Part shown: positions 7,049-40,811 of the stretch, one piece after another
Layout of the letters: the number at the start of each line of letters is the position of its first letter
Position numbering within the stretch: position 1 is the stretch's first letter
From: a virus
Taxonomy: Duplodnaviria; Caudoviricetes
DNA length: 40,811 bases
Virus record (IMG/VR): IMGVR_UViG_3300024518_004288
Location: 1 to 40,811 of that record
Direction: 5' to 3' (one strand)
The notes under the pieces: model-generated
What the model saw: only the letters and a program-made list of their open reading frames with translations
What the model was told of the DNA's origin: nothing
Databases searched by the model: none
Translations under genes and position numbers: made by a program

Positions 7049-9622
7049 TTAGAAAACTCCTACGCTAATGTCAACGAAGATCCAGTTAACCGGGAATGCA
7101 GGCTGAACTTCAACACTTACATTCCATTGTCGTGGTTCAACCGCGTCTCTAGTGACATTTAGGTTTCTGAAGTTTACTAACAATCCTTGAGTTGCCAAAG
7201 CCTGAAGGGCCTTAGTAACAACTGTAGTGATAGATGCAGTTAGAGTAGGATCTTCGGGTATTCCGATAAATCCACGTAGTACATCTCTTAGCACTGTAGC
7301 TGTACGATCACGAATGAACACAACCGAAAGCTCTTCTTCTGCAGCTTGGCCGCCAGAAGTTGTTGTTTTACCCAACAATACCTGTCCGCCACCTACAACC
7401 GGTGTAACAACTGCAACACCAACATTGCCTAGCTCGTTAGCTAGAGATGGAGATAGCAGTCTATCACGTAGGATTGTAAATCCAATTAGAACCTTACGAG
7501 TCAGTGGGATGGCAACGTTTTGCTGTGCGGATAAGAACCCACCAGCAGCTGCAGCCATATAGAATCCATGTAGGAATGTTCTGGTTCCTGAGATTACCCT
7601 AACAATCTGGTCAGGCCACAGGTACAGAACTCTAAATGTTCCACCATAATTGGTTACAACGCTGAAGTCCTGAAGATCCTCAATGTCTCCAGCAAGAAGC
7701 TCATCTGCAGCATCTCCCTGAATTCCTTCAACGACACCGATATCTTCTACGGCCACCAGCTCTCTTCCAGCCAACGCCGCATTAGTAACACCAGTTTGTG
7801 CACCAGTTAACAGCACGCGCTCTCGTTGGTTAGCAGTATTACTCATAAGCTCAACATGAGCCCGTCCAGCTTGCTGAATTGCACTAAACGAACTATCCGG
7901 CAACGGAACAACAATCTGGCAGTTAACCGCCTCTAGTGCCTCGTATGCCGCAGCCCAGTTGCTATCAAAGAAGTCAGCATCCTCAGCATCAATGTAGGTA
8001 GCTCTTATCCCGTCACGAACGCTGATAGTTCCACCTGTTGATAGGTCGGTCGTCAACAGCAATCTAGCCGATGTGTCCGCAGGATCAACAAGCTCCCAAA
8101 CCAGATCAGTAAATGTTCTAGTAAATGGTAGCGTGCCACCCTCAGATGGATTAGTTAGTGTAACTAGTGAGTCATCACCAGTTCCATCACCGACGGTAGA
8201 GATATCATAAGTACCTGCTACATCGCTAGTGTCATTTCCAAACTTATCTCTGTTGAAAACTCTAATCTGCTTAAGAGTATCAGACTCTCCGGTAACCAAG
8301 TTAACCGAAGCAAACGATGCAGAATCAGCGGTAAATACACTGGATCCCGTAGTCGTTGAGCCATCAGTTCCCTCGTCCTCAACCTCGCTAGCCAGAATAA
8401 CCGTATAACTAAATGTATGATTCGGACTATCTATAAAGTTATTATACGGATCAGCTGTAATCACAGCATCAAAGAAGCTAACTTTTGTTGGGAAGATTTG
8501 TGTTTCAGATCCATCAGTGCGGTCTATAATAAGAATGTTAACAGAAGAATCTGTATCCGGGACACCACCATCTAGAGTGTATCTAAATGCCTCTATATCT
8601 GAAGAGGTAATCGGAGCGCCCACTGGAGGGAATCCTTCAGTCGTAGCAGTAAGTAGATCATCACTTGCTATCAAAACCTCACTTGTTCTACGGGGAGTCG
8701 GAGGCTTAGCCTGTACAGCCAGAACACCGAATGAACCATTCTCAAATGCCATAGCAGAGCCCAACGACAATGTATTAGCCGCCGTCGGTTGGCCATGCTT
8801 AGCAAATAGTGCGTTTGAGTCAATGAAGAACTCTGGATCATTAAGATCGATTGCCGCAATATATCGGGCCTCTAGAACATCTCCTCGAACCAAAACTCCA
8901 CTGTCTACACGAATTGTATATCTATCTCCACGATCAAATGGAGTCACTCCCTCAGTAATGGCCATTCTTAAAATACCATTATCTCGAATTGTGCCATCAC
9001 TTAAAAATACAACGGGAGCGCCGTATGCATCAACAGGCTGACCTGACTCAGAACCAGTAGCTGTAAAAACAGCATTCTCTGGAAGTGGGTCGCCGTACGC
9101 ATCACGAATTACACTGGTAACTCTTAGCGTCCATGTTTCTGTGGGAGCGTTTGCATCGATTAACTCTAGTGATGCAATTGTGCCATCACCAACATTGCTT
9201 GACCCAGGTACGAAAAACGTTCCACCTTGATCTACCAGGTGCGCGCGCTGAAGCTCTACTCTACCCGTTGCGGGTTCTAGTCTAAATCCATACTTGCTAT
9301 CAAATACGTTTGTATCAATGGTCGCCTCTACTCCAGTAAGAGGAACGCCGTTCTTCAGTATAGCGGTTCTTTGTGCAGTAAGACTGATACTTGCTAGCTG
9401 AAAGTGTCGGCCATCTGGAGCATTAGATGCCTGGAAATCAGGATTAACGCCATCAGCGCCGCTACCTTCTGCCTCCAAAACAACTGTCTCTTCGGCTTGA
9501 CCTAAGCCTACGATTGCTAGAATGCGCAATCCGCCTGGGATCGCAATGGATCGGCGGATAGTTCTAACTCGTGAAAATACGCCGGGTTGTACAAAGCCGC
9601 TCAGGCCTGGAATATTTGCCAT
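7049..9622 (-). CDS. Contractile tail sheath protein (857 aa) with inserted domains
   Basis: N-terminal PGVFSR motif. Sheath-type C-terminus (EELSVVFIRDRTATVLRDVLRGFIG...WNVSVEVQPAFPVNWIFVDISV). Sits upstream of the tube gene. Confidence 0.85.
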   Translation of the reverse strand: MANIPGLSGFVQPGVFSRVRTIRRSIAIPGGLRILAIVGLGQAEETVVLEAEGSGADGVNPDFQASNAPDGRHFQLASISLTAQRTAILKNGVPLTGVEATIDTNVFDSKYGFRLEPATGRVELQRAHLVDQGGTFFVPGSSNVGDGTIASLELIDANAPTETWTLRVTSVIRDAYGDPLPENAVFTATGSESGQPVDAYGAPVVFLSDGTIRDNGILRMAITEGVTPFDRGDRYTIRVDSGVLVRGDVLEARYIAAIDLNDPEFFIDSNALFAKHGQPTAANTLSLGSAMAFENGSFGVLAVQAKPPTPRRTSEVLIASDDLLTATTEGFPPVGAPITSSDIEAFRYTLDGGVPDTDSSVNILIIDRTDGSETQIFPTKVSFFDAVITADPYNNFIDSPNHTFSYTVILASEVEDEGTDGSTTTGSSVFTADSASFASVNLVTGESDTLKQIRVFNRDKFGNDTSDVAGTYDISTVGDGTGDDSLVTLTNPSEGGTLPFTRTFTDLVWELVDPADTSARLLLTTDLSTGGTISVRDGIRATYIDAEDADFFDSNWAAAYEALEAVNCQIVVPLPDSSFSAIQQAGRAHVELMSNTANQRERVLLTGAQTGVTNAALAGRELVAVEDIGVVEGIQGDAADELLAGDIEDLQDFSVVTNYGGTFRVLYLWPDQIVRVISGTRTFLHGFYMAAAAGGFLSAQQNVAIPLTRKVLIGFTILRDRLLSPSLANELGNVGVAVVTPVVGGGQVLLGKTTTSGGQAAEEELSVVFIRDRTATVLRDVLRGFIGIPEDPTLTASITTVVTKALQALATQGLLVNFRNLNVTRDAVEPRQWNVSVEVQPAFPVNWIFVDISVGVF

Positions 9623-9732
9623 TTTTAAATGCTCCTATTAACTTTTAGTTTATCTTGCGCACTTACTTTAAATTCCCCGGTCTAAAAAACGTCAATTACT
9701 ATGCATACTTCCGTCAATAATACACGATTTTG

Positions 9733-9772
9733 GGTATACTTCTGTCTACATCTAATGTGGTAATATTAATAG
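9733..9772 (-). promoter_or_regulatory. Candidate phage late promoter element upstream of the sheath gene
   Basis: CTATTAATATT-N21-AGTATACC on the minus strand; the same bipartite arrangement recurs at 36096-36135. Confidence 0.5.
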
Positions 9773-9774
9773 AT

Positions 9775-10551
9775 TTACAATAAATCTGCCGTAGTGATCT
9801 CCTCGTTTATAGTTAGGCCATCAGCTATAGAACCACCGATAGTTCTAAATGTTAAACATACTCCAATCCGCTCGCAGACATCGTTTATTGGTATTCTAAC
9901 CTTCCACTCACTTCTTGTATCTATATTAATAGAGATCATATAAAGGAAGTCATTTGAGTACTTCTCTTCGGTCTCGCCCCCAGTAGACAGTACCTTTATA
10001 TGGAGTCCGGCACGCTCTAGCTCCCGACGACGAGTTCCCATAAGGGTTACTTTTATAATATCAGCAATTTCCTCGCGATCCATTTCATTCTCAGCTATAA
10101 CCTTGACCTCAAAAGTCTGATCCCATGCTCCAGCCAAAGTGTGATATGCTGGAGTGGTAATGACCGTCTGGTTTCCATAGCCGTCTATCAATAATTCACG
10201 CCTATTAATAACCGACAATAAGTTCTGATTAAAGGCTATGGGAACATACCTGCTGCCAGTGCTCTTAACTATAATAGACGGATTGAATTTTATGTCATAT
10301 CTAAACGTACTGCCTATGAAAACTCTAGTGGTACTGGTATCATCTAGACCCGCTTCCGGATCAAGACCTAAGTGAGACGGTGTTTTGGGAAATCCAAAAA
10401 CATCCTGCACGTATTTGTACTGACGATCCTGGGCAAAAATATCCCTTAGCATATCTATTAGGATATTCTTTCCATGCACAACTCCAGTCTGCTGAACTAC
10501 ATTTTCCAGACTGAATATATCAGATACAACTCTATGTGAACCTATTGGCAT
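9775..10551 (-). CDS. Putative tail terminator / tail completion protein (258 aa)
   Basis: Immediately upstream of the sheath gene. Pattern FNPSIIVKSTG...FEVKVIAENEMDREEIADII...LYMISINIDTRSEW resembles tail-completion folds. Call is synteny-based. Confidence 0.55.
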   Translation of the reverse strand: MPIGSHRVVSDIFSLENVVQQTGVVHGKNILIDMLRDIFAQDRQYKYVQDVFGFPKTPSHLGLDPEAGLDDTSTTRVFIGSTFRYDIKFNPSIIVKSTGSRYVPIAFNQNLLSVINRRELLIDGYGNQTVITTPAYHTLAGAWDQTFEVKVIAENEMDREEIADIIKVTLMGTRRRELERAGLHIKVLSTGGETEEKYSNDFLYMISINIDTRSEWKVRIPINDVCERIGVCLTFRTIGGSIADGLTINEEITTADLL

Positions 10552-11159: not shown

Positions 11160-11170
11160 ATCTTTCTCCT

Positions 11171-16306: not shown

Positions 16307-19300
16307 TTAAAGTACTTCGCCAATACTGGCAGCTAGTGGTGTACTCGTACCATCTAGCTCTGATATATTTCCTGCTATTGAATAACTTGACGTAACAACT
16401 CTTATATGGTTGAATCTAATGGTTGGCTCTTTATCTGATCCTGTCCCACCATCTATAAAAGTTGAGTTTAAAATTCTTACTCGTGGAGCAAAGTCAAACA
16501 TAACATTGTCAGCTAAGCCCAGCTCCGTTATTGGTATTGACGCAACATGCCGCTCTGTAACCGAATCAGATGGCAGCACGCCAGTGTTTATTGTTTTTAC
16601 TCGGGCATACTCGTCAGCCACAGTTATAGTGCTTATACCTGTTTCAACTACGACGCCAAGCTCTATGTGAGATGCTCCACTTACTCCGAATGGTCCACCC
16701 GATAATCCAGTAAAAACGAATTCGGCAAAAATATTAATGTGTGTCATACCAACCGCTTTAAATATTGATGTCTTGATTGTGTCAGGATCACTAAATTCAA
16801 ATCTTCGAGTTGTTATTGTCGGACTTAGTCCCGCAGAGAATCCACGAGCCGACAGTGTAGAGTTGTCTCCAGTAACACCAGCAGATATATAAGTGAACCC
16901 ATTGTTGTCACCAGGCTCTATTCCAGCGATATATCCGTCTCCAGATCCAGATGCTGATGCCTCGGTGAATCCCCACAAGCTTCCGGCAACCGAATTTTGC
17001 ACTTGGTCAATTCTATTGCTAAGCGAAGCTTCTGCGTTAACTAGACGCTTATCTATATTGCCAACTATCAGGCGGCGATCTAAAAAGTATCCATCGATCT
17101 CTGTGCCATTGGTTTCAAATTCAGCTATGATAGCAACCCCGCGATCATCTCCATATCCATCACCAGCAGTTAAGTCGGCGAAGGCAAACCCAGCATCGAA
17201 CTCACTTTTTACTATGTAGTTGCCATCTCGATCTAACAAAACCAATCTGCTAGCTGCACCAAACTCATCAACGGTAACATCCTTGGTCTCTACTTTGACC
17301 AATCTACCATCTACTAGCGCGTCTCCACCTCGTACCCTAAATGATAACTGATCAGAGGAAACTATCTCGAAACCACGGATAACACCATTGTTCCTGGTTC
17401 CGCTCATAACATCTTCTAGCGCAACCTGGTCCAACTTGTCCTCTGACTTGTTGTCTACCATAGCGCCTTGTAAGCGGCTGTCTGTAGAGAATTTCAAAGT
17501 AGCTAAGCCGAAGTTACCAGAATAATGCACAGATCCCACATGGAGCCTGTCGTCGGTCCCAGCAAACGTAGATACATCCATTGACTTTCTTCCAGATGTA
17601 GGAACACCGGTTACTTCAAACAGCGCATCATTTATGTTGTCTGGAGCAAATACCCGAAGCTGTCCTTGAAATCCAGTAGGTATTGTGGTCTGAACTCCGC
17701 CCTCATTGTTTTCGAACAACTGTATTACACTGGAATCAATAATCTGCCAGTCCAAACTAGTTGTGGGGAAGTCCTTAGATACTTCACGTAAAGTAACTCC
17801 ACTAAGAGGCCCATACGATACACGGAGAGATTTTGTTACAGTTCCGTAGCCATCTCCTCCGTCCTCAACGAATATATCAAACACCTCTCCGCTAGCACTG
17901 TTTTCAAAGTTAACAGAGTTCGCGGGAATCTCTAAATCGAATTCACCATTTTGAATATCGGAACTTAGAACTATGGACTGGCTATTTGGAAACGCCAATA
18001 TGTAATGTGTTCCGTTATCGGTAGGAGTTGTACTGTGATTGGTTACGTTGACTATAATTCTTCCCTCGTTTCCAATAGAAATGCCGAGAGTAGAAAGATC
18101 ACCTAGCCCTAGAGCTAATGTGTTTAGTGGCCTTGTAGTATGATTGTGATGAACCTTTACTAATGATTTCAAATCAGGAATACGCTTGCCGCCGACATAC
18201 CCGGCGTGCGTTGTTCCGGACCATTCGAAAACAGTTGATGTAACTGACCCGAATCCCAGAGTAGTTGCCGCTGAAAACTGAACATCGTCTTTTATTTGAA
18301 CAGTGAACTCTTTGCCCGGGATATTGTGAGCTATTACGAGCCGGCCACCAACGTTGTAGGCAGAGATAGGATAGTGGTCATCACAACCTTGTGCTTTAGT
18401 ATTTATCGCATCAACGACATCATCTAGGTTGTCTGTTGGAATAATAGCAGACAAAGTCACATCAAGTGCCGTGCGGCCTATTCCGCCAGCCTCTATTCTT
18501 AATACGTTGCTAACACCAACTTCCAGCGCACGAATATCTAAATCTACGCTGGTTACTCGGGCAACATTAGGTCGCATTACTTGATAAATATTTGTCGCCT
18601 TAGATGTTTCTGTTTGAAAAATAGATCCAGCTAATACAGTTTCTTTGAGATTCCCCTGTATACCCTGCTCGCCGCGAGTGTTAACGGAGACTCCATTAAC
18701 ATGTAAATTATCCTGATGAATCTCCAATGATGCTAGACCAATGTTATCTAACTCAACCAGTGCGCCCTGAACATCAATGGCAGATATGTTTTGGAACTCA
18801 TCATTAACCGAAATCCCTGTCGCAGCGTGTGCACCAGTCTCTGAGTTTTGATGAGCAGTAAATGCATTGTTTACTACGTTAAGAGCGGTCTCTACATCGT
18901 CACTACTGCGTATACCGACAGTGAGATCTATATCGTATCCATCGTGTCTATCAGCTATACCATTAAAGTGATTTATACTTCTGGCAGAATTAGCATTGAA
19001 ACTGGTTCTAAATGATTCTAAGTCAGCAGCATTGGTAGTTATCCTGTTGTTGAGAAAGGATGTACCAAAGTCAAGATCTAGTTTAACCTCTTGTATAGCA
19101 GCGCCGTCGCCGATTTGAGAGTCACTTATTGGTAAGGCGATCAGCCCTTTTGTAATCAAGGCTGAGGTTTTTATAGTCCCATCTGCATCGATTACACTAT
19201 TAACACGAGTAACTAACGACGCAGTATTGCCTTGAGGATTAACCCCTATAGCATTTTCTATGGAGAATATGGCGTCACGCAAAGAGTTAATTGCGTCACC

Positions 19301-19381
19301 GCCAACCTCAGATATATTATCATCTACTCGGGGAAGCTCAACGTCTGAGTCGATTTCGCCGGGATAAGAAGATCTGCCCAT
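16307..19381 (-). CDS. Large virion structural protein, paralogue of the 1707-aa protein lacking the beta-helix (1024 aa)
   Basis: Collinear similarity with 11171..16294: PRVDDNISEVGGDAINSLRDAIF, HDGY, PNVARVTS vs PNAARVVS, YPISAYNVGGRLVIAHN vs FPITAYRVGNELAIAHN, NGVIRGF vs NGVARGF. Confidence 0.7.
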   Translation of the reverse strand: MGRSSYPGEIDSDVELPRVDDNISEVGGDAINSLRDAIFSIENAIGVNPQGNTASLVTRVNSVIDADGTIKTSALITKGLIALPISDSQIGDGAAIQEVKLDLDFGTSFLNNRITTNAADLESFRTSFNANSARSINHFNGIADRHDGYDIDLTVGIRSSDDVETALNVVNNAFTAHQNSETGAHAATGISVNDEFQNISAIDVQGALVELDNIGLASLEIHQDNLHVNGVSVNTRGEQGIQGNLKETVLAGSIFQTETSKATNIYQVMRPNVARVTSVDLDIRALEVGVSNVLRIEAGGIGRTALDVTLSAIIPTDNLDDVVDAINTKAQGCDDHYPISAYNVGGRLVIAHNIPGKEFTVQIKDDVQFSAATTLGFGSVTSTVFEWSGTTHAGYVGGKRIPDLKSLVKVHHNHTTRPLNTLALGLGDLSTLGISIGNEGRIIVNVTNHSTTPTDNGTHYILAFPNSQSIVLSSDIQNGEFDLEIPANSVNFENSASGEVFDIFVEDGGDGYGTVTKSLRVSYGPLSGVTLREVSKDFPTTSLDWQIIDSSVIQLFENNEGGVQTTIPTGFQGQLRVFAPDNINDALFEVTGVPTSGRKSMDVSTFAGTDDRLHVGSVHYSGNFGLATLKFSTDSRLQGAMVDNKSEDKLDQVALEDVMSGTRNNGVIRGFEIVSSDQLSFRVRGGDALVDGRLVKVETKDVTVDEFGAASRLVLLDRDGNYIVKSEFDAGFAFADLTAGDGYGDDRGVAIIAEFETNGTEIDGYFLDRRLIVGNIDKRLVNAEASLSNRIDQVQNSVAGSLWGFTEASASGSGDGYIAGIEPGDNNGFTYISAGVTGDNSTLSARGFSAGLSPTITTRRFEFSDPDTIKTSIFKAVGMTHINIFAEFVFTGLSGGPFGVSGASHIELGVVVETGISTITVADEYARVKTINTGVLPSDSVTERHVASIPITELGLADNVMFDFAPRVRILNSTFIDGGTGSDKEPTIRFNHIRVVTSSYSIAGNISELDGTSTPLAASIGEVL

Positions 19382-20398: not shown

Positions 20399-23300
20399 TT
20401 ATTGGTTACCACCGACAACGCCAGGCGCACTAATCGTATCCGCTGTTAGATTATCACCCCATCCAATAGCCTTGGTATCATCAAATGTAAATCCGGAATA
20501 GCTACTAAATGTATTAAGAGCAACCGTTGGGTGCTGAGAGCTAGTTGGTGGAGAAGGTATACTCGAGCCAGCATCCATGGTAAGAGTACCTTGCATAGAA
20601 TTACCAATTATAACTACACCTGGAAAGCTAGTGGCTGTTGAACTGAATTCCACGCCCGCACTACCAGTATTATTTGAAAATACAATAGTATTGAATCCAT
20701 GATTAACTGCAACCGCCGTACCAAATATCACTGCGCCATTAAAATTATTTCCAGTGAATGAAGCTCGCAAAAATTCTGCACTACCGGCTGCACTAGCTGT
20801 TGTAAATGAGACAGCCCCAGCAGCACTATTCCCAGAGAAAACTACGTTAGTAAGCGCCCGGATGAAGGGACTTCCCGGCTCGCTAACTGTAAGAGCAGTA
20901 AGACTATTTCCTGTGAAGGCAACATCATCCCATCCATCAGTACTAATGGTCCCGAAAAATTCATTACCAGAAATAGTTGTGTCAGCCACCTGGCCAGTAG
21001 TGCAGTCAAATGTACTCTCGAAGGAGTTTCCAGTAATAGTAGTAAGAGACACTGTGGCGGTATCGTTCGCATTGCTTCCAAGTGTGACAGCACCCAAAAC
21101 CGAGTTGTCTGAGATAACGCATGAATCTACTTTACCGAGAGTCACCGCAGACATAAGATGGTTGCCAGATATAGAGCACGCCGAAAGCCGCCCATACATT
21201 ATCAAATTGGTCCCCACGCGGTTGCCCGATATAGCTGAATCAGTAAATGTTTCGACATCGCCATCCCTAGATCCATTGCCGATGGTAATACCAATTCTAA
21301 ACTGGTTATTAGATATAATAGTATCATCCAAAGCTAGCCCTGATGCACCGCTCAAGCTAGACGCTATCGTCATCGCGGTTGAGCACACATTATCTGATAC
21401 TACAGAGCTTCTCATAACGTTGCCAGTTGTAGAGGTATGTGTTATGGTAACTCCCGCATTAAATACATTATGGCTAATGACAGAATCTAACACGGTCGCC
21501 TGACTGGCGGTATTTGCTGATGATATGGTGGTGGCACCATTTACAATATTTCCGCTCACAACAGATCTATACATTGCGTGCTTGGTCGCTGCAACGGAGC
21601 TATCGATATCTAAAGTACTAGAAATAGAGTTGTCTGAAAATGTGGAATGTCGCAGCGCCGCATCATTTGCAGCAGAGTCACCAGAAAAATCTATATCACA
21701 CACCTGAAAGGAGTTACCAGATATAGAAGTAAAGAAGAAAATATAGGCTGCTGTTAAGCTAGATGTAAATGCAGATGCGCCAGCCACAGTGTTATCATCT
21801 ATTGAGCACTCACTAAAGCGCGTGCTAGATGATATAGCACCAAGATAGTTATTACTAAGATTAAGATTATCGTGCAGGCCTGACCCCGTTGTAGAAAATG
21901 TACTACTTACATTATTGTCAACAAACGTTGTCCTAGTTGACGATGCTGGGAAGGTAACGGAAACCAGAATGTTCCCACTTATATTTACATTATCTGTTGT
22001 ATTACTTATTATTAGGGATCCCACGACAGAGTTACCAATAAAAGCAGTAGTACTTACTGATGATCCAGATAGTGTAAGCCCGCCTGTCGCGGAGCCAAAC
22101 CTATTTGAAGAAATAGTAGACGCTGCTATATCGCCACTAAATGTAGCCGACGGAGTAGCAGCACTAAACATAACATTTCCAGACACGCTGCACCTGGTAA
22201 CAGTGCCAGTTACAGTTACCGTTCCGTCTAAACTATTGTCTGAGATCACTGAATCGGTCAAAGCATCAAGGTCTGTAGTCGATTGCACTGCATTTCCAGA
22301 AATAACACTATCAGCAAGATCTGTAAAATTCATAGCGCCATCAACCTGATTCCCCGTTACATCGAAATTAACCCCGGTGCTTGATCCGGTGTAGGTTAGG
22401 CCAGTAAGTCGATTAGATGATATAGCTAGATTGGCGACTAACGTATTGCCGCTTATCGTTAACGTGCCAGTCAAAACATTATTCGATATAGAGCTATTAA
22501 AAAACGTAGGAGAGGATGCAGTAAGTCCAGCTGTTGATCTATTACCAGTGATAACAATATTACTAGCACTTGTTGCAGAAATTGTTGCCAGAGCACCCAA
22601 AACATTACTACCAAATATTAAGCCGTCTATAGAAGTTCCAGACAGAGTCGGGCCTCCAATAAATATATTATTACTAATATTACAATCAGATACTGTTATA
22701 GACGAAGCAAAAGAAACTATTGTATTACCAAGTATAGATGAATCTGCTATCGCGGCACTTAATACCAAGGCACCCTGAACAACATTATCATTGAACGTTC
22801 CACCAGACGCCATTCCACCAGCTAATGTTATTGTGCTTGCGCCAGTGCCCAACGTATTATCATTACACGCCGATGATAGTAATTGACCAAGTGTAACAGT
22901 TCCGCCGATTACATTACCACTGACATTGCATAGCGACAGCGCTCCACGCATAGTAATGCCGGCCATCGTATTATTGCCTATTGTGGATCCTAGGTATGAA
23001 GAGAGGGTATCTGATCTTCCAACCGGCCCTATCGTATTTGCGCCCGTAAACCTATTTCCACTTATTGTGGAATTAAGAATTATTGATCCAGCTGCAGATG
23101 TATTTAGCCCTGTACCCCACACTGATAAACCTGTAACAGAGTTATCAGAAATGGTTGACTCGCTAATTAAATCTGCACCAGTTGCTCCTCCGGAGGAATT
23201 ATTCATATTAAACGTTCCACCAAATTTATTTCCTGACACAGTGCTATCGAGTAGCGCAAATGTTCCTCCAGCCAATGTGACATTAATTGCCGTGTTATCA

Positions 23301-27169: not shown

Positions 27170-29806
27170 CTACGCTAATAGTTGTAGCAGTGTGATTATT
27201 TTCTGACGAGATGTAGATCTTTCTCCCGCGTCTTGACCAAAGTATGTTACTCGAACCGCGATGTTGTTTTCAGTATCGCCGTTATTTCTAGTACCGAACG
27301 TAAATGGAACAGTGAAATCTCCAGCTGAACCAGTAACTGCCCCTGACAGCGCACCATCGCCATCCTCAAAGCTTCCTGTACTGAACAGTCTGCCTATGTC
27401 CAACCATCCGGTGCCCGGCGTTCCACGTCCAGGAATTCTTACTTCAATTTTACCAAAGCGATCACGCTCGGCGGCTCTCTTAAACCTAATATCATCGAAT
27501 GATACCAAAGAGTTTCCACCACTAACGATGCGCAAGCTGCCGCTGCTAACGGCACGGCCTAGGGTAAACAGGCGTCGATATGTTTTGTCACCAGTTACTA
27601 CACTGTAATCTGTGCCAGATAGTTGTGGACCAGGACCGATTCCATTGCCAGTGGTATAATCATCTTGCGGGTAAATTAGACCAGGTGTATTAAACTCATC
27701 TGTAGTAAATCTGCCACCGCACTGCAAGCTTATAGATGCTAGAGCCGCATTGCTAGTAAAGCCAGGTGTAGTGTCCAGATCAGTGGGGCCATCAAAATTA
27801 TGTGTATCGTCTACACGTTGTGACTCGTCTGTAAACCACTCAGCAGTATCAGTAGCTCTGGTCGTACTAAAGCTATTGACTAGCACTCTGGTTATTAAAT
27901 CTGCACCATAGGCATCATACCCGTCGCCCGCACCAAAAGGATCATGCATTGTTGCCGTAACATGTGCGCGAGTACTAAATTGATTTGGAGCTGGATAAAT
28001 TCTGCGATCTTGCGGAGGAGTAAGGGCCGCTACAGCAGCAGCATCAACGGCAAAATAAAACGCTTGATCGGAGTGCCCTGGCAAATTAGCAGAAGAGAAT
28101 TGAGTATACCCGTCGTCTAATAGCTCGTCAACATCTACTTGTGCACCCCAGTACCCGTCGTCTATCCCATTAGGAAAATTAAATACATCGGTATCGAATG
28201 TTAATATGCTCTGCCTAACATATGTGCTATTGAACACATCGTTGTTACTTCGAAGCTCTACATCAAACTTGTGATCTGCAGTAGCACTATCAATGTAATA
28301 CTTAATGCCAGAAATGAATTTTCCAGTTGCCGGATTTATAGTGACCGGGCGCAAGTTTACATGCTCTACCACAGGACGCGTAGCACTATCATCAACAACG
28401 ATATTGGAGATTCTAGTCGGGTGGTGTCCCTCGCTAGACCCGGAAACAGAGTCGTCTATCACACTAAACAAGTCCGTAGTTGCAGGCTGCCCAGTGAAAT
28501 CTGTAACGCCAGCAATATAGTGTAACACGCGATAAGCGCTTACTTCATTGTTAGCTTCTGCCTCAGTTGTATCAGCTGGAGCGGCTAGCTCTCCGCCAAC
28601 TATATCTGGGTTAGATACTGGTATGGCATAGTGGGCCACTTGAAGTCTGCTAAAGTCATTCTCATAATCATCAAATACGTTTTCATTATTCGCATTCTTA
28701 TTCAACAAACTATAGTCTTCTTTTACCGGGAACCTATCGTATAGCAGAATAGTGTCGAAACTAGCTAGTGACGGCGTATAAACCTGTTGTCCTGTAACTC
28801 GTGCAGCCTCTACAAAATTAGTACTCAAATCTAAAACAGCTATTGGAAAAAATGCCGAAGCACCTCTTAATTTTCTTTGTAATACTAGAGTTCCACGATC
28901 AGCTGGGAAAACTGCCCCACTAACCATAAACTGGAACCTACTAGTTCCGCCAACGCTTGATGATGTGCGGGTGATAAACTTTGTTGATTTAAAACCTTCC
29001 GAAGGTAAAGAGAAGAATCCATCCTTGGCATCGAGTGAATATATCGCAAAATCATCGCCTAACCCTGAAATAGCTACAGCAAACGAAGCAGACGTTCTGG
29101 CCACTCTAACGCGCTTGGTAGATGTGCCAGATTGCAACGTCGCAGTATCGCCGGCAGCCAAACTACTAACATCCACTGAGGCACCAAAGGAATCTCCCGG
29201 AGCGCGCCATCTGACTTGCTCTGTACCGACTCCTAGTGTTCCGCCATCAGAAAAGAACTCCAACCTAGCTCCATAGCCATCATCAGTGGTACTGCTAACC
29301 TCAGTTATCTGAATACCAGCTACGGCAGTCGGCTGAGTTCTTTTTAACACATTGGCAGTAGAGCTTACGTTAAATGCGAATTTAGTTCCATATCCGTCGA
29401 ACCAATCAGGGATACCGTCGTTAGGGACATTGGAATTGTCAGCGCCTATAACATCAGGCTGAGGAGGAACCAGAGCACCTAGCTCTTCTAGAATTCCTTC
29501 TACGTCGTCCTCGAAATAGTTATCTGGTGAATCTACAACTGATATGGCACTAGCGTCGTGAGCGTCTGTGGTATCGGCCAGGTGAGCCAATAGGAGTGCT
29601 CTGACGTCGCCTATCTCATCCAACCTGGCTCGGACGGTAGCAAACGTGCCAGAAGGTTGTACGCCCAGCTCGCTCTCGATTTTAACGATGGCGTCACGTA
29701 AACGATTATGGTCCTCAGCGCGTATCTCGTCAACAAGGTTACGCACCAGCGGTAATGTAGCATAGCCATCTAATCTTTCCGGATATACTGAAAATGAAGA
29801 AACCAT
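27170..29806 (-). CDS. Virion structural / appendage protein (about 878 aa)
   Basis: Start moved to ATG 29806 (GAGGA 6 nt upstream). N-terminal YPERLDG...HNRLRDAIVKIESELG is related to the 1707- and 1024-aa proteins. Contains the fibre-type AHDASAISV motif. Confidence 0.7.
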   Translation of the reverse strand: MVSSFSVYPERLDGYATLPLVRNLVDEIRAEDHNRLRDAIVKIESELGVQPSGTFATVRARLDEIGDVRALLLAHLADTTDAHDASAISVVDSPDNYFEDDVEGILEELGALVPPQPDVIGADNSNVPNDGIPDWFDGYGTKFAFNVSSTANVLKRTQPTAVAGIQITEVSSTTDDGYGARLEFFSDGGTLGVGTEQVRWRAPGDSFGASVDVSSLAAGDTATLQSGTSTKRVRVARTSASFAVAISGLGDDFAIYSLDAKDGFFSLPSEGFKSTKFITRTSSSVGGTSRFQFMVSGAVFPADRGTLVLQRKLRGASAFFPIAVLDLSTNFVEAARVTGQQVYTPSLASFDTILLYDRFPVKEDYSLLNKNANNENVFDDYENDFSRLQVAHYAIPVSNPDIVGGELAAPADTTEAEANNEVSAYRVLHYIAGVTDFTGQPATTDLFSVIDDSVSGSSEGHHPTRISNIVVDDSATRPVVEHVNLRPVTINPATGKFISGIKYYIDSATADHKFDVELRSNNDVFNSTYVRQSILTFDTDVFNFPNGIDDGYWGAQVDVDELLDDGYTQFSSANLPGHSDQAFYFAVDAAAVAALTPPQDRRIYPAPNQFSTRAHVTATMHDPFGAGDGYDAYGADLITRVLVNSFSTTRATDTAEWFTDESQRVDDTHNFDGPTDLDTTPGFTSNAALASISLQCGGRFTTDEFNTPGLIYPQDDYTTGNGIGPGPQLSGTDYSVVTGDKTYRRLFTLGRAVSSGSLRIVSGGNSLVSFDDIRFKRAAERDRFGKIEVRIPGRGTPGTGWLDIGRLFSTGSFEDGDGALSGAVTGSAGDFTVPFTFGTRNNGDTENNIAVRVTYFGQDAGERSTSRQKIITLLQLLA

Positions 29807-29842
29807 ACTCAATCCTCGATAACAGAGTTCAATTTATGCTCT

Positions 29843-29861: not shown

Positions 29862-31244
29862 TTATATCGTCGCGTCGAATTGATACAAAACATCTGTACG
29901 ATCGTGCCGCCTCATACGAAATTCTTGCTTGCCTGTGTTCCCAAAGAACATCTTGTTGCGGGTAACATCCAATATCTCATAACGAAACTCTTCTATAAAA
30001 TTGCCATTAATATCTTGATCAAACCTTATGATTATATCTCTATCTTTAACAGTTGGGACAGTTATAGTCCACGCTGTAAGCTCAGAAGGATGCCTTAATC
30101 CCTGGTCTCCTACGCTCTCCAAATCATCAGAGTAAGGAGTAACTCTAACCAGTATCATTCCCTGGGTATTAGCGAATCTCTCAGAAATAGACCGCGCGTT
30201 TGTGTATCTATCATATCCTCCAGAAAACCCGGTGCCGAAACAAAATGCGCACCTGGTTCTAGGATTCTCTCTACGCAGCCCTATGCAGCGACAACGCTTT
30301 CCTGACCACTTCCGCCTAAGCAGAACAACCGGCTCTCCGGTCACCTGCAGCATGGAGTCTAATCTAGCCAGATTCCGGTCTTGGAAAAACAATCCACGGC
30401 CTCCATCAAACTCTCCGCCGACATAGCTATTAACACAGTCGCCACTAAACGTAGCTTGTAGGCTCGGTTTATGATATCCCTTGAAATCATACTCGGGGAA
30501 ATCAATATTCTCTGCATCTGCCGCCGAGAAGTCCGGAGTAATCACATCTGTTACGGCAGCTCGGTAGCCGTCGGGATCTACATTGACTTGATTTATTGCA
30601 GTCACATCTCTCGGTGTACCAAGAGACTCGTGCCAAGCAGCAGTTTCATTTAGTATAAGAGTATTGTCGTCCTCTAATCCGTGCCAAAGCTCTACAGAAT
30701 CGCCAATGTCGTGAGAAGCTATAGTCGTTTGGACCGCTCCTCGCTCTGAAGTCGTTACTGTGAAAAAAGTAGAGCCCTTGGACGAGTACTGCATTATCTC
30801 GGAGCCTATCTTTATAAAACCTTTGTTGGGGAAGTCTGAAGTGTCTGGGACTTCAATATCAGTACCATATGCATCTATGCTGCTTTGTAGTAGCTGATCC
30901 CCAGGATATTGGAATACGTCTGTATTTATTTGACCAAGTTCACCGATGTCAAACTCAGCAGGATCAAATTCGGTAGCTCGTATGGCAAAATAATATAGTA
31001 CGCCGGGATCAACATTGATAACAACTCGCTGAGCAGTTGTCACCGCTATTGGCGTCTGATTAAATACACCAACTCTAGAGGTAGAGTAGTATATATTGTA
31101 ATGAACTTGTGTTGTGGTTCCTGCTGGAGCAGCCTCACCCCAAGTCAGGCGCAAGCCCATCCCATTGCCAACGTCTTCAATTAATCGCAGGCCAAGTAAG
31201 TGCACCCAAGTAGGATGTGATCTGCAGGCAGCATCTGTTGGCAT
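29862..31244 (-). CDS. Putative head-closure (neck) protein with N-terminal FN3-like domain (460 aa)
   Basis: N-terminal LRLTW...HYNIYYST...LYYFAIRATE is FN3-like. C-terminal GEPVVLLRR...KRCRC...RCAFCFGTGFSGGY...AWTITVPTVKDRDIIIRF...FRYEI has the zinc-finger-bearing head-completion pattern seen in large myoviruses. Confidence 0.6.
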   Translation of the reverse strand: MPTDAACRSHPTWVHLLGLRLIEDVGNGMGLRLTWGEAAPAGTTTQVHYNIYYSTSRVGVFNQTPIAVTTAQRVVINVDPGVLYYFAIRATEFDPAEFDIGELGQINTDVFQYPGDQLLQSSIDAYGTDIEVPDTSDFPNKGFIKIGSEIMQYSSKGSTFFTVTTSERGAVQTTIASHDIGDSVELWHGLEDDNTLILNETAAWHESLGTPRDVTAINQVNVDPDGYRAAVTDVITPDFSAADAENIDFPEYDFKGYHKPSLQATFSGDCVNSYVGGEFDGGRGLFFQDRNLARLDSMLQVTGEPVVLLRRKWSGKRCRCIGLRRENPRTRCAFCFGTGFSGGYDRYTNARSISERFANTQGMILVRVTPYSDDLESVGDQGLRHPSELTAWTITVPTVKDRDIIIRFDQDINGNFIEEFRYEILDVTRNKMFFGNTGKQEFRMRRHDRTDVLYQFDATI

Positions 31245-31262: not shown

Positions 31263-31781
31263 TTATTTACCTAATAGCTTTTCCCTATATTTGACCTCGT
31301 CTTTATCCTTAACATCATGATGGTCTAGCAACCCCTCAACATATTCTTCAGCTGAGCCGTCGGATTCTTCTCTGTTTTTGTAGTCGATTTGTGCTTTAAA
31401 GGCCTCTTCCTCGGTAGGGCGATCCAAATATTCTTTGTCCTGCTTCTTATCATCTACATTGCCGGTAGACTGCTGTAGATAATGCATAAGCTCGTGGACC
31501 AAATAATTCGTAGGATCCTCAACGTCACTATCGTCTTTCAACATTTTTTCGTTCAAGTATATCTTTTCGTCTTTGGTTTTTGCAGACACATCTAGTTTAC
31601 AAAATTCAATGTGCACATCGTCAATTTCATCCAACGATACGCCATACTCTTTGAATTTCTCTATTACCTTGGGGTCAGACTTAACCGTGCGACGCATTTC
31701 AGCTACAAACTTGTCGGCGTCAGGCTTTGACCGCTTGCTCAGTTTCGTCAGCTTTAGGTGCCTCTGTGACAGTTTTCTCAT
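31263..31781 (-). CDS. Zincin-like metallopeptidase (172 aa)
   Basis: IYLN...YLVHELMHYLQ (HEXXH) with a downstream Glu in YLDRPTEEEAF. GAGG RBS. Confidence 0.7.
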   Translation of the reverse strand: MRKLSQRHLKLTKLSKRSKPDADKFVAEMRRTVKSDPKVIEKFKEYGVSLDEIDDVHIEFCKLDVSAKTKDEKIYLNEKMLKDDSDVEDPTNYLVHELMHYLQQSTGNVDDKKQDKEYLDRPTEEEAFKAQIDYKNREESDGSAEEYVEGLLDHHDVKDKDEVKYREKLLGK

Positions 31782-32635: not shown

Positions 32636-32866
32636 TTATGCCTGTATGCCTATGATCTGCCAAGCGCCTGACGATGATATGTATAGAGTTGATATAGCGC
32701 CTATCTCAAAACTATGAAAGCCTACCGGTAAAGTAATGTAGTCGAAGCCATCAAGACTTAGGGAGAACGTAACACCCGAGGCGACGCTAACATTGAGATA
32801 GTCTACAGGTCTATCAAAAGTAATAGTGTCATCTGCTGTTCCACCAAAAAATGTATTAGCTGCCAT
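32636..32866 (-). CDS. Small all-beta protein, possible virion decoration protein (76 aa)
   Basis: AGGAG RBS, alternating beta-strand pattern, and a leader motif shared with the sheath gene. Function is inference. Confidence 0.5.
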   Translation of the reverse strand: MAANTFFGGTADDTITFDRPVDYLNVSVASGVTFSLSLDGFDYITLPVGFHSFEIGAISTLYISSSGAWQIIGIQA

Positions 32867-33209: not shown

Positions 33210-34097
33210 TTAAATAATCTGTCTAGCGCGTAGATGCCGCAATCTTAAGAAATTAGGATTGATTGCTGTAACTCTGAAAGTACCAAGTCCGAGAGGCGTA
33301 GGCTTAAGCGATGTTTTGATATGCTTTAGTTTTTCCTTATAGTCTTGCAGCTGAGTACTATACTGAGTGTTCAACATATCTGACACTTGAGGCGGCTGAT
33401 ACGAAACACCATTATCGGTTATGGAAAACTCTCTACCTTTTTCTATCAAGGCCTGAGCAGCCAACGCCAACAACACGGCACCCTGAGTTATTATATCCAT
33501 AAACAACCCTTGAATCTGTACATCGGCAAAAGTAAATGAAGTAAAGTGAGGATACTGATTGAACTCCGATAAACTATTTACCAGAAAACAAATCAGCTCA
33601 GTGTCACTAAATATAGCACACGGCGTTTCGACCTCGTTGCCCAAAGCATCCTTAACTTTTCTAACCCCATCGTTTTTAACACGTTTTTTCAACACACCCA
33701 TGAGTATGTTTATGCCGGTTATCTCGTCCTTGGTAAAACTAAACGGAACCTCGTCGCCCGGTTGATGGTCAGGTAGTTCAGATACCTCAACAGACCCGGC
33801 CGCTAATACCATAAAAGTAAACGCAGACTGTACCGACTCATTACCTATAACAGCAACCCAACGATCGGTCCAATAACCATCTGGATCGGTTAGTGGAACC
33901 TCGTAAGTAAAACTGTACAGCCCTGGGTCATCTACTAAAGATACACCGACGTTTGTTAATGACTGCTGTACTACTCCGTTGGAATCCGTTATCTCCACTC
34001 GCGGCGTATCATCAGCATTAACAGGGTTACCTGCAGCATCAAGAAAACGAACGAATAGCTCTACGGTCCTTCCACGTATAACTAATCTATTAGCCAA
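33210..34097 (-). CDS. Putative head-tail adaptor (neck) protein with N-terminal Ig-like domain (295 aa)
   Basis: TTG start with GGAGG RBS. N-terminal beta-sandwich (VELFVRFLD...PGLYSFTYEVP...YWTDRW). C-terminal FSDTELICFLVNSLSEFNQYP...FSITDNGVSY is a helical adaptor-like pattern. Confidence 0.55.
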   Translation of the reverse strand: MANRLVIRGRTVELFVRFLDAAGNPVNADDTPRVEITDSNGVVQQSLTNVGVSLVDDPGLYSFTYEVPLTDPDGYWTDRWVAVIGNESVQSAFTFMVLAAGSVEVSELPDHQPGDEVPFSFTKDEITGINILMGVLKKRVKNDGVRKVKDALGNEVETPCAIFSDTELICFLVNSLSEFNQYPHFTSFTFADVQIQGLFMDIITQGAVLLALAAQALIEKGREFSITDNGVSYQPPQVSDMLNTQYSTQLQDYKEKLKHIKTSLKPTPLGLGTFRVTAINPNFLRLRHLRARQII

Positions 34098-37082: not shown

Positions 37083-37993
37083 GTTATAATCATTACCCTT
37101 CTGGCTCCTGCTACGGGTGTGTAATTTATTACGATAACACCGTGTTCAGCAACTGAACCGGCAATTCCTGTGCCACCTTTACCGCCACCGCCACCGCCGG
37201 CACCTGCGCCGGCCCCATAGTTACCGCCTGTAGAGCCTGCGCCGCCTTGAGCTTCAGAACCACCACCACCACCGCCACCGCCACCACCACCGGCACCAGT
37301 GGTTGCATCGAATATTGTTCCATTGCCCCCGGCTGTGCCTGCGGTACCGTTCGCTTTATCACCGCCACCACCGCCGCCGCCGCCGGATGTACCACCATCC
37401 GTAGGGCCACCTGCGCCTCCGGCACCGCCTGCGCCGCCGTCCGGATCTGTGCCCACTGAGCCGGCAGTTCCAACAACGCCAACTCCGGTTGTACCACCAG
37501 CACCACCACCGCCGCCGCCTCCGCCGCCACCGTTACGATTTCCACCACCGTTACCACCAGCAGCTCCAGCGCCACCATCAAAATTACCACCAGCACCAGT
37601 GCCGCCCGTGCCGCCGCTGCCAGCATTACCACCTGTAGCGTTTGCAGGATTGCCCTGACCACCGCCGCCACCTATGGCGTTTACTACGGCTGTAGAATCC
37701 CAAAATGTATTAGTGCCGTCTGTAGCGTCACCACCATTAGAACCACCAGCGCTACCACGAACTCCTACTTGAAAAGCAACTGTGCCGGAAGCAGTTTGAT
37801 TGGTGACTCGGCGGTATTCACCACCGCCACCACCACCACCACCACCGCCGCCGTCTTGACCAGCGGTTTCGTCAGAGCCACCGCCGGATCCGCCGCCGGC
37901 GCCGATGCATTCAATAGAATTATTAGCGTCGTTCCAGTCGCCTGGAACTGTCCATGGTGATATATCCACAGATGTTAGGATTATCTGGGTCAT
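37079..37993 (-). CDS. Glycine-rich (polyglycine II) virion / adhesin-like protein (304 aa)
   Basis: WTVP...IECIGAGGG...GGGGEY...GVIVINY frame with long Gly runs, as in phage glycine-rich domain proteins. AGGAG RBS. Confidence 0.7.
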   Translation of the reverse strand: MTQIILTSVDISPWTVPGDWNDANNSIECIGAGGGSGGGSDETAGQDGGGGGGGGGGGEYRRVTNQTASGTVAFQVGVRGSAGGSNGGDATDGTNTFWDSTAVVNAIGGGGGQGNPANATGGNAGSGGTGGTGAGGNFDGGAGAAGGNGGGNRNGGGGGGGGGGAGGTTGVGVVGTAGSVGTDPDGGAGGAGGAGGPTDGGTSGGGGGGGGDKANGTAGTAGGNGTIFDATTGAGGGGGGGGGGGSEAQGGAGSTGGNYGAGAGAGGGGGGKGGTGIAGSVAEHGVIVINYTPVAGARRVMIIT

Positions 37994-38519: not shown

Positions 38520-38523
38520 TTTT

Positions 38524-40811
38524 TTAATCCTCCGTATAGATTATGGTAACCGACATTTCACCGACGGTCCCAGTTTGTGCTGTTGTTTCCAGCCACACGA
38601 ATGAATCAGCTACTATGGTCGCATCATTGAATGACGTTACATCTGATCCTGTGGTTTGACTGGTAGTTGTTGTCCCACCGGTAACGGCTTCAGCACCAGC
38701 AGCTGATCTGTCGGTGCCGTGGCGAATAGTCCAGGATACACTTGGTGTTGAGCCCCTAACTACCGCTCTTATTTCTGTAATAGTAATCGCCGCGTTGGTA
38801 AAGAACATAGATAAATCTTCTGTTGACGTAGGCGACTCTATGGTTATTGACTTGCTTAGGATGGAGCCATAACCATCCAAATCTTTAATTACAGATTGCA
38901 ACGCAGTAGAGTGCTGAGAGTTGTGCTCAGACACCGTTACGTCGCTAGCATATCCATCCAATGCTACTCTAACTGACTGTATGGCTACGCTAATTTGATT
39001 ATGATGCTCGGCTTCTGTTTGATCTAGCCCGGTTATAGCAGTATCATATCCATCCAACTCTTTTATGATAGTTTGTATAGCATCAGCTGTTGAATTCTTA
39101 TTTTGTAAGAAGGTCCCCTCGCTTACACCACTTGATACAGCAGTAGTGTATCCATCCAAGTCCTTACGAATAGTCTGTATAGCTGCAGATAGCTGCGAAT
39201 GATGCTCTGATTCTGTTTGATTGAAACCAGTTATCTGTGTCTGATAACCATCCAGGTCCTTAAGAACAGTCTGTATAGCCGCAGACACCTGTGAATGATG
39301 TTCTGCCTCAGTAACGACTGATGCGAAGTTAGAACCCGAATATCCATCAAGATCCTTTATGATAGTTTGTAAGGCAGTATTAGTTTGGGCGTTATGCTCA
39401 GATACAGTTTGGTCTAAACCAGTAAGGTCAGTTGCCAAAGCATAACCATCCAAATCCTTAACTATGGATTGTATAGCCCCTTCGATACCCGACAAGTCTC
39501 TTTGATCATTATAACCGTCTAACTCTTTTATAATAGCTTGTAGGGCTACATTGGTTTGCGAATTGTGTTCTGATACAGTTTGACCCAGACCGTCTAGTTG
39601 AGACTGATAACCATCCAGGTCTTTAAGAACAGTTTGTATAGCTTGTGAAACCTGAGAGTGGTGCTCTGCCTCTGTGACAACTGAAGCAAAGTTACTACCA
39701 TCGTAACCATCCAAATCCTTCAATATGGATTGGATAGCCGTAGATAACTGGGAATGATGCTCACTTACGGTTTGGTCACTGGCATACCCGTCCAGGTCTT
39801 TTACTATGGACTGTATAGCACCTTCAATACCAGATAGATCCCTTTGATCATTATATCCGTCTAACTCTTTTATGATAGTTTGTATGGCACCTTCAATTCC
39901 CGAAAGGTCACGTTGATCGTTGTAGCCGTCCAAATCTTTAAGAATGGTTTGTATAGCTGTGGATACTTGTGAATGATGTTCAGCCTCAGTTTGAGCGGAA
40001 GCAAAGTTAGCTCCCGAGTAGCCGTCCAAGTCTTTCAGTATAGTTTGTATAGCCGCAGAAATCTGAGAGTGATGCTCAGCTTCAGTTTGTATAGCACCAC
40101 TGAGATCAGTTGTTAAGGCATACCCATCCAAATCTTTCAGAACAGTTTGTATGGCTGATTCAATGCCACTTAAATCGCGTTGGTCATTATAGCCGTCCAG
40201 CTCTTTAATGATAGTTTGAATAGCATCTGCTGTGGAGTTTTTATTCTCTAAGAATGTGGTCTCACTTACACCCGCTTCCGCTGAAGTAATATAGCCATCC
40301 AAATCTTTAAGTATGGTCTGAACAGCGCTGGATATTTGTGAATGATGCTCTGCTTCTGTTTGAGCACTGGCGAAGTTACTGCCACTATATCCATCCAAAT
40401 CTTTTAATATGGTTTGAATAGCCCCGGTGACCTGAGCATTGTGTTCTGCTTCTGTTTGTATAGCTCCGGACACTACGCTGGATAAAGCGTAGCCATCCAA
40501 ATCCTTAACTATGGACTGTATAGCCGTATTAGTCTGAGCGTTATGCTCACTTACAGTTTGATCTAAACCAGTAAGGTCAGTAACCAGCGCGTAGCCATCC
40601 AAGTCCTTAAGGACAGTTTGTATGGCGTCAGCAATCCCGCTTAGATCTTGTTGGTCATTATACCCATCTAGCTCTTTAATGATGGTTTGTATAGCACCTT
40701 CTAATCCAGAAAGGTCACGTTGATCATTATAACCGTCTAACTCTTTTATGATGGCCTGAAGGGCTACGTTAGTTTGCGAGTTATGTTCGCTTACAGTTTG
40801 GTCTAAGCCAG
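38524..40811 (-). CDS. Segmented coiled-coil fibre protein with LDGY-terminated repeats and C-terminal globular head; 5'-truncated (at least 761 aa)
   Basis: The frame stays open to the window end (GLDQTVSEHNSQTNVALQAIIKELDGYNDQRDLSGLEG...), so the ORF-track start at 40602 is an internal TTG. The last ~110 aa are non-repetitive beta (KSITIESPTSTEDLSMFFT...VTIIYTED). Confidence 0.75.
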   Translation of the reverse strand, partial: GLDQTVSEHNSQTNVALQAIIKELDGYNDQRDLSGLEGAIQTIIKELDGYNDQQDLSGIADAIQTVLKDLDGYALVTDLTGLDQTVSEHNAQTNTAIQSIVKDLDGYALSSVVSGAIQTEAEHNAQVTGAIQTILKDLDGYSGSNFASAQTEAEHHSQISSAVQTILKDLDGYITSAEAGVSETTFLENKNSTADAIQTIIKELDGYNDQRDLSGIESAIQTVLKDLDGYALTTDLSGAIQTEAEHHSQISAAIQTILKDLDGYSGANFASAQTEAEHHSQVSTAIQTILKDLDGYNDQRDLSGIEGAIQTIIKELDGYNDQRDLSGIEGAIQSIVKDLDGYASDQTVSEHHSQLSTAIQSILKDLDGYDGSNFASVVTEAEHHSQVSQAIQTVLKDLDGYQSQLDGLGQTVSEHNSQTNVALQAIIKELDGYNDQRDLSGIEGAIQSIVKDLDGYALATDLTGLDQTVSEHNAQTNTALQTIIKDLDGYSGSNFASVVTEAEHHSQVSAAIQTVLKDLDGYQTQITGFNQTESEHHSQLSAAIQTIRKDLDGYTTAVSSGVSEGTFLQNKNSTADAIQTIIKELDGYDTAITGLDQTEAEHHNQISVAIQSVRVALDGYASDVTVSEHNSQHSTALQSVIKDLDGYGSILSKSITIESPTSTEDLSMFFTNAAITITEIRAVVRGSTPSVSWTIRHGTDRSAAGAEAVTGGTTTTSQTTGSDVTSFNDATIVADSFVWLETTAQTGTVGEMSVTIIYTED
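38870..40811 (-). repeat. Coding tandem repeat: 22 units of 23-34 aa ending A(I/L/V)Q(T/S/A)xx(K)(D/E)LDGY
   Basis: Units counted from the translation; DNA copies differ mainly at synonymous positions. Confidence 0.9.

Follow-up and report, generated by a model that had tools for sequence, protein, structure and literature searches.

A short Asp-Gly-Tyr motif on the outer virion proteins of a lineage of large tailed phages, a candidate sequon for tyrosine O-glycosylation

The viral contig IMGVR_UViG_3300024518_004288 (Duplodnaviria; Caudoviricetes), whose entire length of 40.8 kb (40,811 nucleotides) is referred to here as the window, carries the neck and tail module of a contractile-tailed phage, the near-complete relatives of which have genomes of 372-473 kb. 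The tripeptide Asp-Gly-Tyr (DGY) is strongly enriched, at 10-25 times expectation, in the predicted outer structural proteins of this module and of the clade to which it belongs, where it has strict residue needs, turns over at many non-homologous sites and co-occurs with a soluble glycosyltransferase of the GT4 family encoded beside the tail genes. Judging from this co-occurrence, DGY (with DAY tolerated in some lineages and proline depleted at the following position, +1) may be the acceptor for tyrosine O-glycosylation started by the phage GT4, to which we give about an even chance, while covalent modification of some kind at DGY is considered fairly likely.

In the preliminary description of the window, DGY had been counted by hand and about one occurrence had been expected from composition. 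Every count was reproduced (26 DGY, distributed as in Table 1, and 22 more in a repeat fibre), and the eight structural proteins, sheath included (7,741 aa), hold 26 DGY against 1.08 expected (Poisson p ~1e-26), the runner-up tripeptide in the same proteins reaching p 1e-8. The excess also persisted against shuffled controls, with a mean of 1.35 and a maximum of 6 DGY in 2,000 local 30-residue shuffles, and in the window structural proteins Tyr follows DG in 26 of 66 cases compared with 4 of 655 for other xG dipeptides, so that the enrichment in the window is confirmed as real. The copies in the fibre arose by tandem duplication and amount to roughly a single event. The motif is missing from the remaining 20 window proteins (4,340 aa), as had been noticed for a number of them, but with 0.6 expected this absence is not significant alone. 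Of the two variants proposed earlier, DAY is enriched (6 vs 0.9 expected in the window), whereas DSY is no real variant by count (5 vs 6.4 expected in the four neck loci closest to the window and 0.8 times expectation clade-wide), being seen only as a rare swap at established sites. The positions given for three tandem arrays were exact, and repeated gain at non-homologous sites is borne out across the clade, where many alignment columns carry the motif. In the window, clear paralogy was found for one pair only of the 26 sites (an H-DGY at residues 146/147 of the two neighbouring giant proteins); one further pair has 7 of 20 flank residues in common.

Homologs of the 460-aa neck protein in viral data were missed by a single-sequence query and recovered by an alignment query (189 found, 120 listed), and all of the 120 listed contain D[GAS]Y. 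Among 81 neck loci compared, some of them near duplicates, DGY reached at least 5 times the expected number in 74 and 2.3-4.4 times in the other seven, and the motif persists in loci whose GC content ranges from 23 to 57%. Within the structural module, three complete genomes hold 31-39 DGY versus 3.8-4.7 expected (39 vs 4.7 in G015, which is complete with terminal repeats), and outside it 22 vs 13, 33 vs 13.5 and 18 vs 12, part of which lies in apparently displaced structural genes. One gene displaced from the structural module, at G013:270471, encodes 8 DGY in 420 aa, and 57 DGY were seen in a 3,634-aa protein of G004, the closest relative. The motif is carried by the sheath, terminator-like, neck, wedge and baseplate-end families and by seven of nine members of a probable capsid-decoration family, one more of which has DSY. 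No DGY was found in the capsid, portal, head protease, tube, tube initiator and hub families of the clade (0 in 10 capsid and 0 in 15 tube sequences), which supports clade-wide the restriction to outer structural proteins suggested from the window. An active avoidance by inner proteins is not supported, as the pooled inner proteins (57,960 aa of related sequences) contain 3 DGY versus 7.5 expected. DGY density flags outer virion proteins in this clade, including displaced genes, whatever the reader of the motif may be. A subclade comprising L039/L040, L063/L067/L068 and L069 (100% SH-aLRT for four representatives in the tree) has only 2-4-fold DGY on the neck side; the decoration protein of G023 is without DGY, but the baseplate side of the subclade is enriched, as in a partly 'uncoated' lineage.

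Related phages, including Bacillus phage G (Donellivirus), are not clearly enriched. In stretches of five outgroup genomes, phage G showed 2, 3 and 0 DGY versus 1.8, 2.2 and 2.0 expected (the homologous tail proteins giving 3 vs 2.2), or 5 versus 6.0 over the stretches compared, which cover about 130 kb of its 497 kb, and E3, LR745208 and Rctr197k showed 1 vs 1.6, 1 vs 3.8 and 0 vs 1.7, respectively. Tunturi_5 (6 vs 2.3) was not taken as a second DGY case, the signal being weak.

The residues of the motif are held with unusual strictness. Across 117 neck homologs, Tyr fills the third position of the motif columns 307 times and Phe 3 times (3/310), compared with 364 Phe to 1,889 Tyr (~16% Phe) in other Tyr-rich columns, and the first position holds Asp 307 times, Asn once, Gly once and Glu never; 46 baseplate-end proteins gave 150 Tyr to 1 Phe and 150 Asp to 2 Asn. 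The middle residue is freer (250 Gly, 54 Ala, 3 Ser, 1 Thr). The patterns DGF, DGW, NGY, EGY and YGD occur near chance. No flank consensus was detected in 1,044 de-duplicated site contexts, drawn from 316 proteins chosen for having at least three DGY. Proline at +1 is scarce, following DGY in 7 of 1,025 cases (0.7%) compared with 2.7-12.5% in five control patterns. DGY is a short ordered motif in unrelated proteins, whose putative acceptor is hardly ever exchanged for its non-reactive analogue and beside which proline is scarce, as is expected of a glycosylation sequon. A +1 proline rule is known for the N-X-S/T sequon of N-glycosylation.

The sites also turn over. DGY occupies 31 alignment columns in the neck protein and 40 in a baseplate-end protein, of which each sequence keeps 1-10 or 2-11 D[GAS]Y, and parsimony required 62 and 80 changes at these columns, respectively, numbers that are inflated by alignment slippage in loops. 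At one extreme stands DGY225 of the neck protein, nearly invariant in 116 of 117 homologs; residue 124 toggles between DAY, DGY and DSY, and the two DAYG sites of the window sheath are DSY and DGY at the homologous positions in G013. Two supported lineages, to one of which the window belongs, show DAY at about 5-6 times expectation (25 vs 4.7 and 41 vs 6.5; the split comes from a quick neck tree without bootstrap), and in 61 other loci DAY is below chance (35 vs 56). Overlapping tandems of the form DGYD[GAS]Y make up 68 of 1,044 contexts. In an AlphaFold2 model of the neck protein the sites lie in loops or turns, and Y227 begins a strand after a turn. Because residue strictness, proline depletion, turnover and lineage-specific tolerance of DAY come together, DGY appears to behave as a site bound in an enzyme cleft that would need both the Tyr hydroxyl and the Asp carboxylate.

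Candidate readers were sought among 73 families present in at least four of five complete or near-complete genomes, 53 of which were scanned against Pfam, the other 20 being known structural, mobile or already annotated genes. Two clade-specific enzymes are encoded at the structural module, namely a soluble GT4 glycosyltransferase and an HExxH zincin. The GT4 (PF00534 domain, GT-B fold, model pLDDT 93.8) is encoded one to a few genes away from the last baseplate gene in all eight genomes read, and was found in 31 of 39 records, including 8/8 near-complete genomes, and in none of five outgroups. DGY enrichment was seen at every one of the 54 GT4 loci whose baseplate genes are in view; 20 loci of distant GT4 paralogs had 0-4 DGY and are uninformative, as no baseplate genes are in view there. 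The GT4 and baseplate trees agree for the most part (rho 0.76; 18 of 27 supported splits common), and divergence is no quicker in the GT4 than in the baseplate protein. In the second DAY-tolerant lineage (G013, 310902-313166; G018, G019, G020 and G022) the core GT4 forms a fusion with another GT4 domain, in frames of 745-789 aa, and the core GT4 of G005 is split by a LAGLIDADG-containing insert, probably an intein. The zincin was present in 13/13 clade records and 8/8 near-complete genomes and in 0/5 outgroups, with H96, E97, H100, E124 and E126 invariant in nine of nine sequences; weak leads pointed to IrrE/SprT-like neighbours, and the enzyme possibly has a role in neck or tail maturation. 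The GT4 is preferred over the zincin as reader because cleavage would be implausible at 22-57 sites per fibre.

Behind the GT4 lie sugar clusters of variable size with nonulosonate and deoxysugar enzymes; that of G015 comprises a handful of genes, and that of G004 spans about 55 kb. The soluble glycan cluster of G004 (~39,000-95,000; L009-L012) contains three NeuB, several CMP-sugar transferases, many GT2 and GT4 enzymes, a GlmS-like enzyme, aminotransferases and a pyruvyl transferase, and among 188 open reading frames (ORFs) of six such clusters none has more than one predicted membrane segment, so that no multi-pass membrane protein was found. A constant initiating enzyme followed by variable extension genes would be the layout expected of a diversified coat. 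A tubulin/TubZ-like core gene stands directly after the glycan cluster (L143:17857-19203; L153:4351-5706). Two other candidates were set aside. A GT2 gene occurs in 7/8 near-complete relatives, but the pairing of GT4 with GT2 as reader is contradicted by the DGY-rich complete genome G015, which has no PF00535 match (a very divergent GT2 could escape such a search), and the GT4 is the only glycosyltransferase found to be universal. A core trypsin-like protease (4/5 genomes) has an apparent signal peptide at its start. The low-DGY genome G014, which might have been a natural loss of the reader, does not discriminate, as both the GT4 and the zincin are retained and DGY remains enriched on its baseplate side.

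In the preferred reading the GT4 would act in the cytoplasm of the infected cell, adding a first sugar to the Tyr hydroxyl where DGY turns are exposed on the neck, sheath, baseplate, fibre and capsid-decoration proteins. The glycan would then be lengthened and varied by the products of the variable GT2/GT4 and nucleotide-sugar genes that lie behind the GT4. Numerous sites would be selected for in whatever loops can accommodate them, and the resulting coat would shield the particle or alter adsorption. The enzyme-reader idea of the preliminary description gains support from the strict Asp and Tyr, the proline depletion and a universal clade-specific GT4 beside the tail genes, with modification as such still conjectural. 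The more general proposal, that a phage lineage of 370-480 kb glycan-coats nearly all of its outward virion proteins through D-[G/A]-Y-[not P], one soluble GT4 and swappable sugar cassettes, is more tentative and is held at somewhat less than an even chance.

Several observations weigh against GT4-initiated glycosylation. The motif and the GT4 are both ancestral to one clade, so that their co-occurrence is a single event and not many, and the zincin has the same distribution. The GT4 is not encoded in the window contig (by the gene order of G004 it would lie about 21 kb past the left end), and the GT4 tree contradicts that of the baseplate protein at 6 of its 27 supported splits. The monophyletic subclade with low neck DGY (9 vs 3.0 expected; 7 vs 1.0 on the baseplate side) keeps an intact GT4, and non-virion phage proteins are not depleted in DGY, as a promiscuous cytoplasmic enzyme might cause. 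Sequence and fold searches with the GT4 returned generic relatives only: the top Foldseek matches of the model are largely general GT4-type enzymes (such as PglA, GlgM and BshA) and do not indicate an acceptor, and the protein-modifying GtfA (PDB 4pqg) ranks 23rd at 15% identity. The proline effect was chosen from 280 position-residue cells at sites that are not fully independent, and three contrasts survive correction (other DxY, 22/457, p 6e-7; DG[FWH], 11/88, p 8e-9; DG[ILV], 15/374, p 5e-5) while those with other xGY (16/598, p 2e-3) and [NST]G[FW] fail it. In the available portions of PMC7824862 (section 3.4.10) and PMC12801897, phage glycosyltransferase clusters are read as modifiers of host surface polysaccharide or DNA, as is usual, and glycan, mass shift and binding are all predictions from sequence here.

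Other explanations were weighed against the same data. The motif could be a sequon for a different covalent modification (phosphate, nucleotide, sulfate or acyl) or a site read by a host enzyme, which is unlikely: residue strictness and proline depletion would suit any enzyme gripping a short extended peptide and many core genes are without a Pfam match, but no kinase, sulfotransferase, Fic or oxidase family was detected among the 53 core families scanned, the wide GC range of the loci suggests unrelated hosts, and tolerance of DAY tracks phage lineage. We hold it to be about equally improbable that DGY is a non-covalent dock at which some ligand, hair fibre or small decoration protein would bind and coat the particle; docking of a decoration protein had also been proposed. 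The many copies on outer proteins only and the near-invariant neck site would fit such a dock, whereas three residues without flank consensus offer little binding surface, Phe and Trp rarely substitute, overlapping tandems leave two binders little room, and no universal clade-specific small structural protein emerged among six small window or G004 proteins profiled, the only universal one (202 aa) also matching the DGY-free tail region of phage G. A probable 76-aa beta-sandwich protein of the window (32636-32866), patchy in the clade (10 matches), is a possible small decoration protein.

The motif might also be a favoured beta-turn or calcium-binding loop that needs no reader, since turns often contain the pair DG and EF-hand-like DxDxDG loops can include DGY. 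The strand-opening Y227 agrees with this, as does the Tyr of the repeat fibre, which from its sequence may occupy a coiled-coil core position, but the explanation is quite improbable given that NGY, DGF and DGW are near chance, that DxDxDGY accounts for 2 and [DN]x[DN]xDGY for 14 of 1,044 contexts with Asp at -2 in 75 (about background), and that the homologous tail proteins of phage G hold no clear excess; moreover, three beta-helix sites, possibly one homologous rung, put Tyr in outward register where other rungs have T/A/D/N/S. DGY might instead be a cleavage site of the neck-encoded zincin, which has an intact HExxH...E and is present clade-wide; it would cut before Tyr and be blocked by a following proline, in the manner of thermolysin-type enzymes. 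A virion-maturation zincin has been proposed for other jumbo phages in the accessible part of PMC7824862. Cleavage would, however, shred the repeat fibre at 22 sites and the G004 protein at 57, would fall within the N-terminal domain that the 880-aa protein has in common with the 1707- and 1024-aa proteins (one DGY lies there) and would make tandem sites pointless, so that this is slightly less probable still than a simple turn. Lastly, a DNA-level repeat or duplication has practically no chance: the 22 fibre copies are tandem and GGT is under-used at window sites (2/26), but all synonymous codons are used, the contexts are unrelated, 682 DGY sites use Gly codons much as other Gly residues preceding Tyr or Phe do, and the frame test refutes it, as the word GAYGGNTAY occurs 48 times in frame and twice elsewhere in the window and is at chance out of frame in six genomes. 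Selection on protein, as claimed for the window, is hence supported across the clade.

Table 1. Features of the window and their D[G/A/S]Y content
Feature	Position	Strand	Remarks
Coiled-coil repeat fibre	38524..40811	-	At least 761 aa, as the contig stops within it (right end); almost all of its 22 DGY are in the K[DE]LDGY that closes each repeat
295-aa predicted head-tail connector	33210..34097	-	PHROG 17327, E 1e-4; 1 DGY, D codon at 33881
172-aa HExxH zincin-like metallopeptidase	31263..31781	-	Pfam Peptidase_M91, E 7e-6; 0 DGY; clade core gene
460-aa neck protein	29862..31244	-	FnIII-like N-terminus and stopper-like C-terminus; DAY124, DGY225 (1 DGY)
880-aa predicted appendage protein	27170..29812	-	6 DGY, 1 DAY
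Tandem array GDGYDAYG	27905..27928	-	Within span of 880-aa protein
2252-aa predicted beta-helical fibre	20399..27157	-	Fold predicted from repeat pattern; 6 DGY, 1 DAY, 3 DSY
Tandem array DYGDGYDIDGY	26942..26974	-	
Tandem array LDAYDSYG	26630..26653	-	
Tandem array GDGYDSYG	26339..26362	-	
1024-aa predicted appendage protein	16307..19381	-	5 DGY
1707-aa appendage protein with beta-helix	11171..16294	-	Pfam Beta_helix, E 2e-11; 6 DGY, 1 DAY
258-aa terminator-like protein	9775..10551	-	Putative role from position before sheath; 1 DGY
Tail sheath	7049..9622	-	PHROG 2839, E 3e-17; 0 DGY, two DAYG (residues 174, 198)
Negative set	1..7004	-	0 DGY; tube 6336-7004, chaperones, probable tape measure 2664-5165, tube initiator 1710-2648, partial hub 1-1699 (tape measure and hub named from position and family alone)

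PHROG and Pfam assigned the sheath, tube, tube initiator, one connector and one beta-helix protein of the window (Table 1). One member of the terminator-like family matches gp177 of phage G, and the model of the neck protein matched the neck of phage 812 in Foldseek (E 3e-5). Among isolated phages, the window sheath matches Rhodococcus phage E3 only and no close relative was found, and the neck protein and the zincin have no match. The 1707-, 1024- and 880-aa giants resemble each other over their first ~60 aa (YP..D..P.V.....E.....N..RDAI..I....G), a domain that recurs on many clade proteins outside the module and is probably a common virion-attachment domain. A 304-aa protein (37079-37993) adjoining the repeat fibre is 41% glycine, with 0 DGY and no profile match, and only two window proteins (19390-20388 and 31995-32432) have a predicted membrane segment, being spanin- or holin-like by position and shape. 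A 383-kb contig of the clade (L107) was placed in a bin labelled Chitinophagales, which may be mis-binning or a hint of the host.

If tyrosine O-glycosylation is correct, DGY would be the first defined Tyr O-glycosylation sequon and the coat a viral glycocalyx; the soluble sugar clusters of huge phages, usually read as modifiers of host surface or DNA, would gain a role, glycan shielding would extend to a large environmental phage lineage, and a three-residue tag with one soluble enzyme would become available for glycoengineering by cytoplasmic Tyr glycosylation. In the literature searched, outside which lay most subscription papers and supplements such as phage proteomics tables, no description of a DGY virion motif, no Tyr-glycosylation sequon and no virion-wide modification motif was found.

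When compared with known systems, the motif works like a glycosylation sequon but lacks defining features of each known family tested. Phage G, the closest isolated phage by capsid (52% identity to the G013 capsid), has homologous capsid, portal, neck, sheath, tube, chaperone and wedge proteins, but differs in showing no DGY enrichment in the ~130 kb compared, and in its whole record no GT4 or zincin ortholog was found. GtfA modifies Ser/Thr-rich repeats; it is a soluble GT4-fold enzyme with a protein acceptor, and its match to the phage GT4 is at family level only. The O-glycosylation system of Bacteroidota is cellular and extracytoplasmic. Its motif, (D)(S/T)(A/I/L/V/M/T), is also an Asp-first tripeptide in many unrelated proteins according to the accessible text of PMC8550257, with the middle Ser/Thr as acceptor, whereas here the middle residue is Gly or Ala and the invariant hydroxyl is that of the third-place Tyr. 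The Tyr O-glycosylated S-layers of Paenibacillus alvei and Thermoanaerobacter, in the part of PMC2943079 available, are alike in carrying a Tyr-linked sugar at several sites of a surface lattice, but use a lipid-linked glycan, export and a predicted oligosaccharyltransferase, with variable context at 2-4 sites; for a membrane oligosaccharyltransferase or exporter of this type, no Pfam match was found among 95 proteins, and 0/188 cluster ORFs have two or more hydrophobic segments. The portion of PMC12645811 available describes glycosylation of flagellin in the cytoplasm, for which no sequon is known, and of Tyr by some toxins, and glycosylation is mentioned for DNA only in the accessible part of the phage G paper (PMC12484599). 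The moraphage paper PMC12619734 concerns smaller phages, and DGY occurs 0 times in its available text. As cited there (Freeman et al. 2023), mycobacteriophages bear glycans on virion subunits, with phage-encoded glycosyltransferases and a proposed shield. According to the same text, it is the C-terminal ends of their capsid and tail tube subunits that carry the glycans, whereas capsid and tube are without the motif here (motif location, not glycans, being compared). Unlike mycobacteriophages, the lineage described here has dozens of internal, tripeptide-defined sites on neck, sheath, baseplate, fibres and decoration protein.

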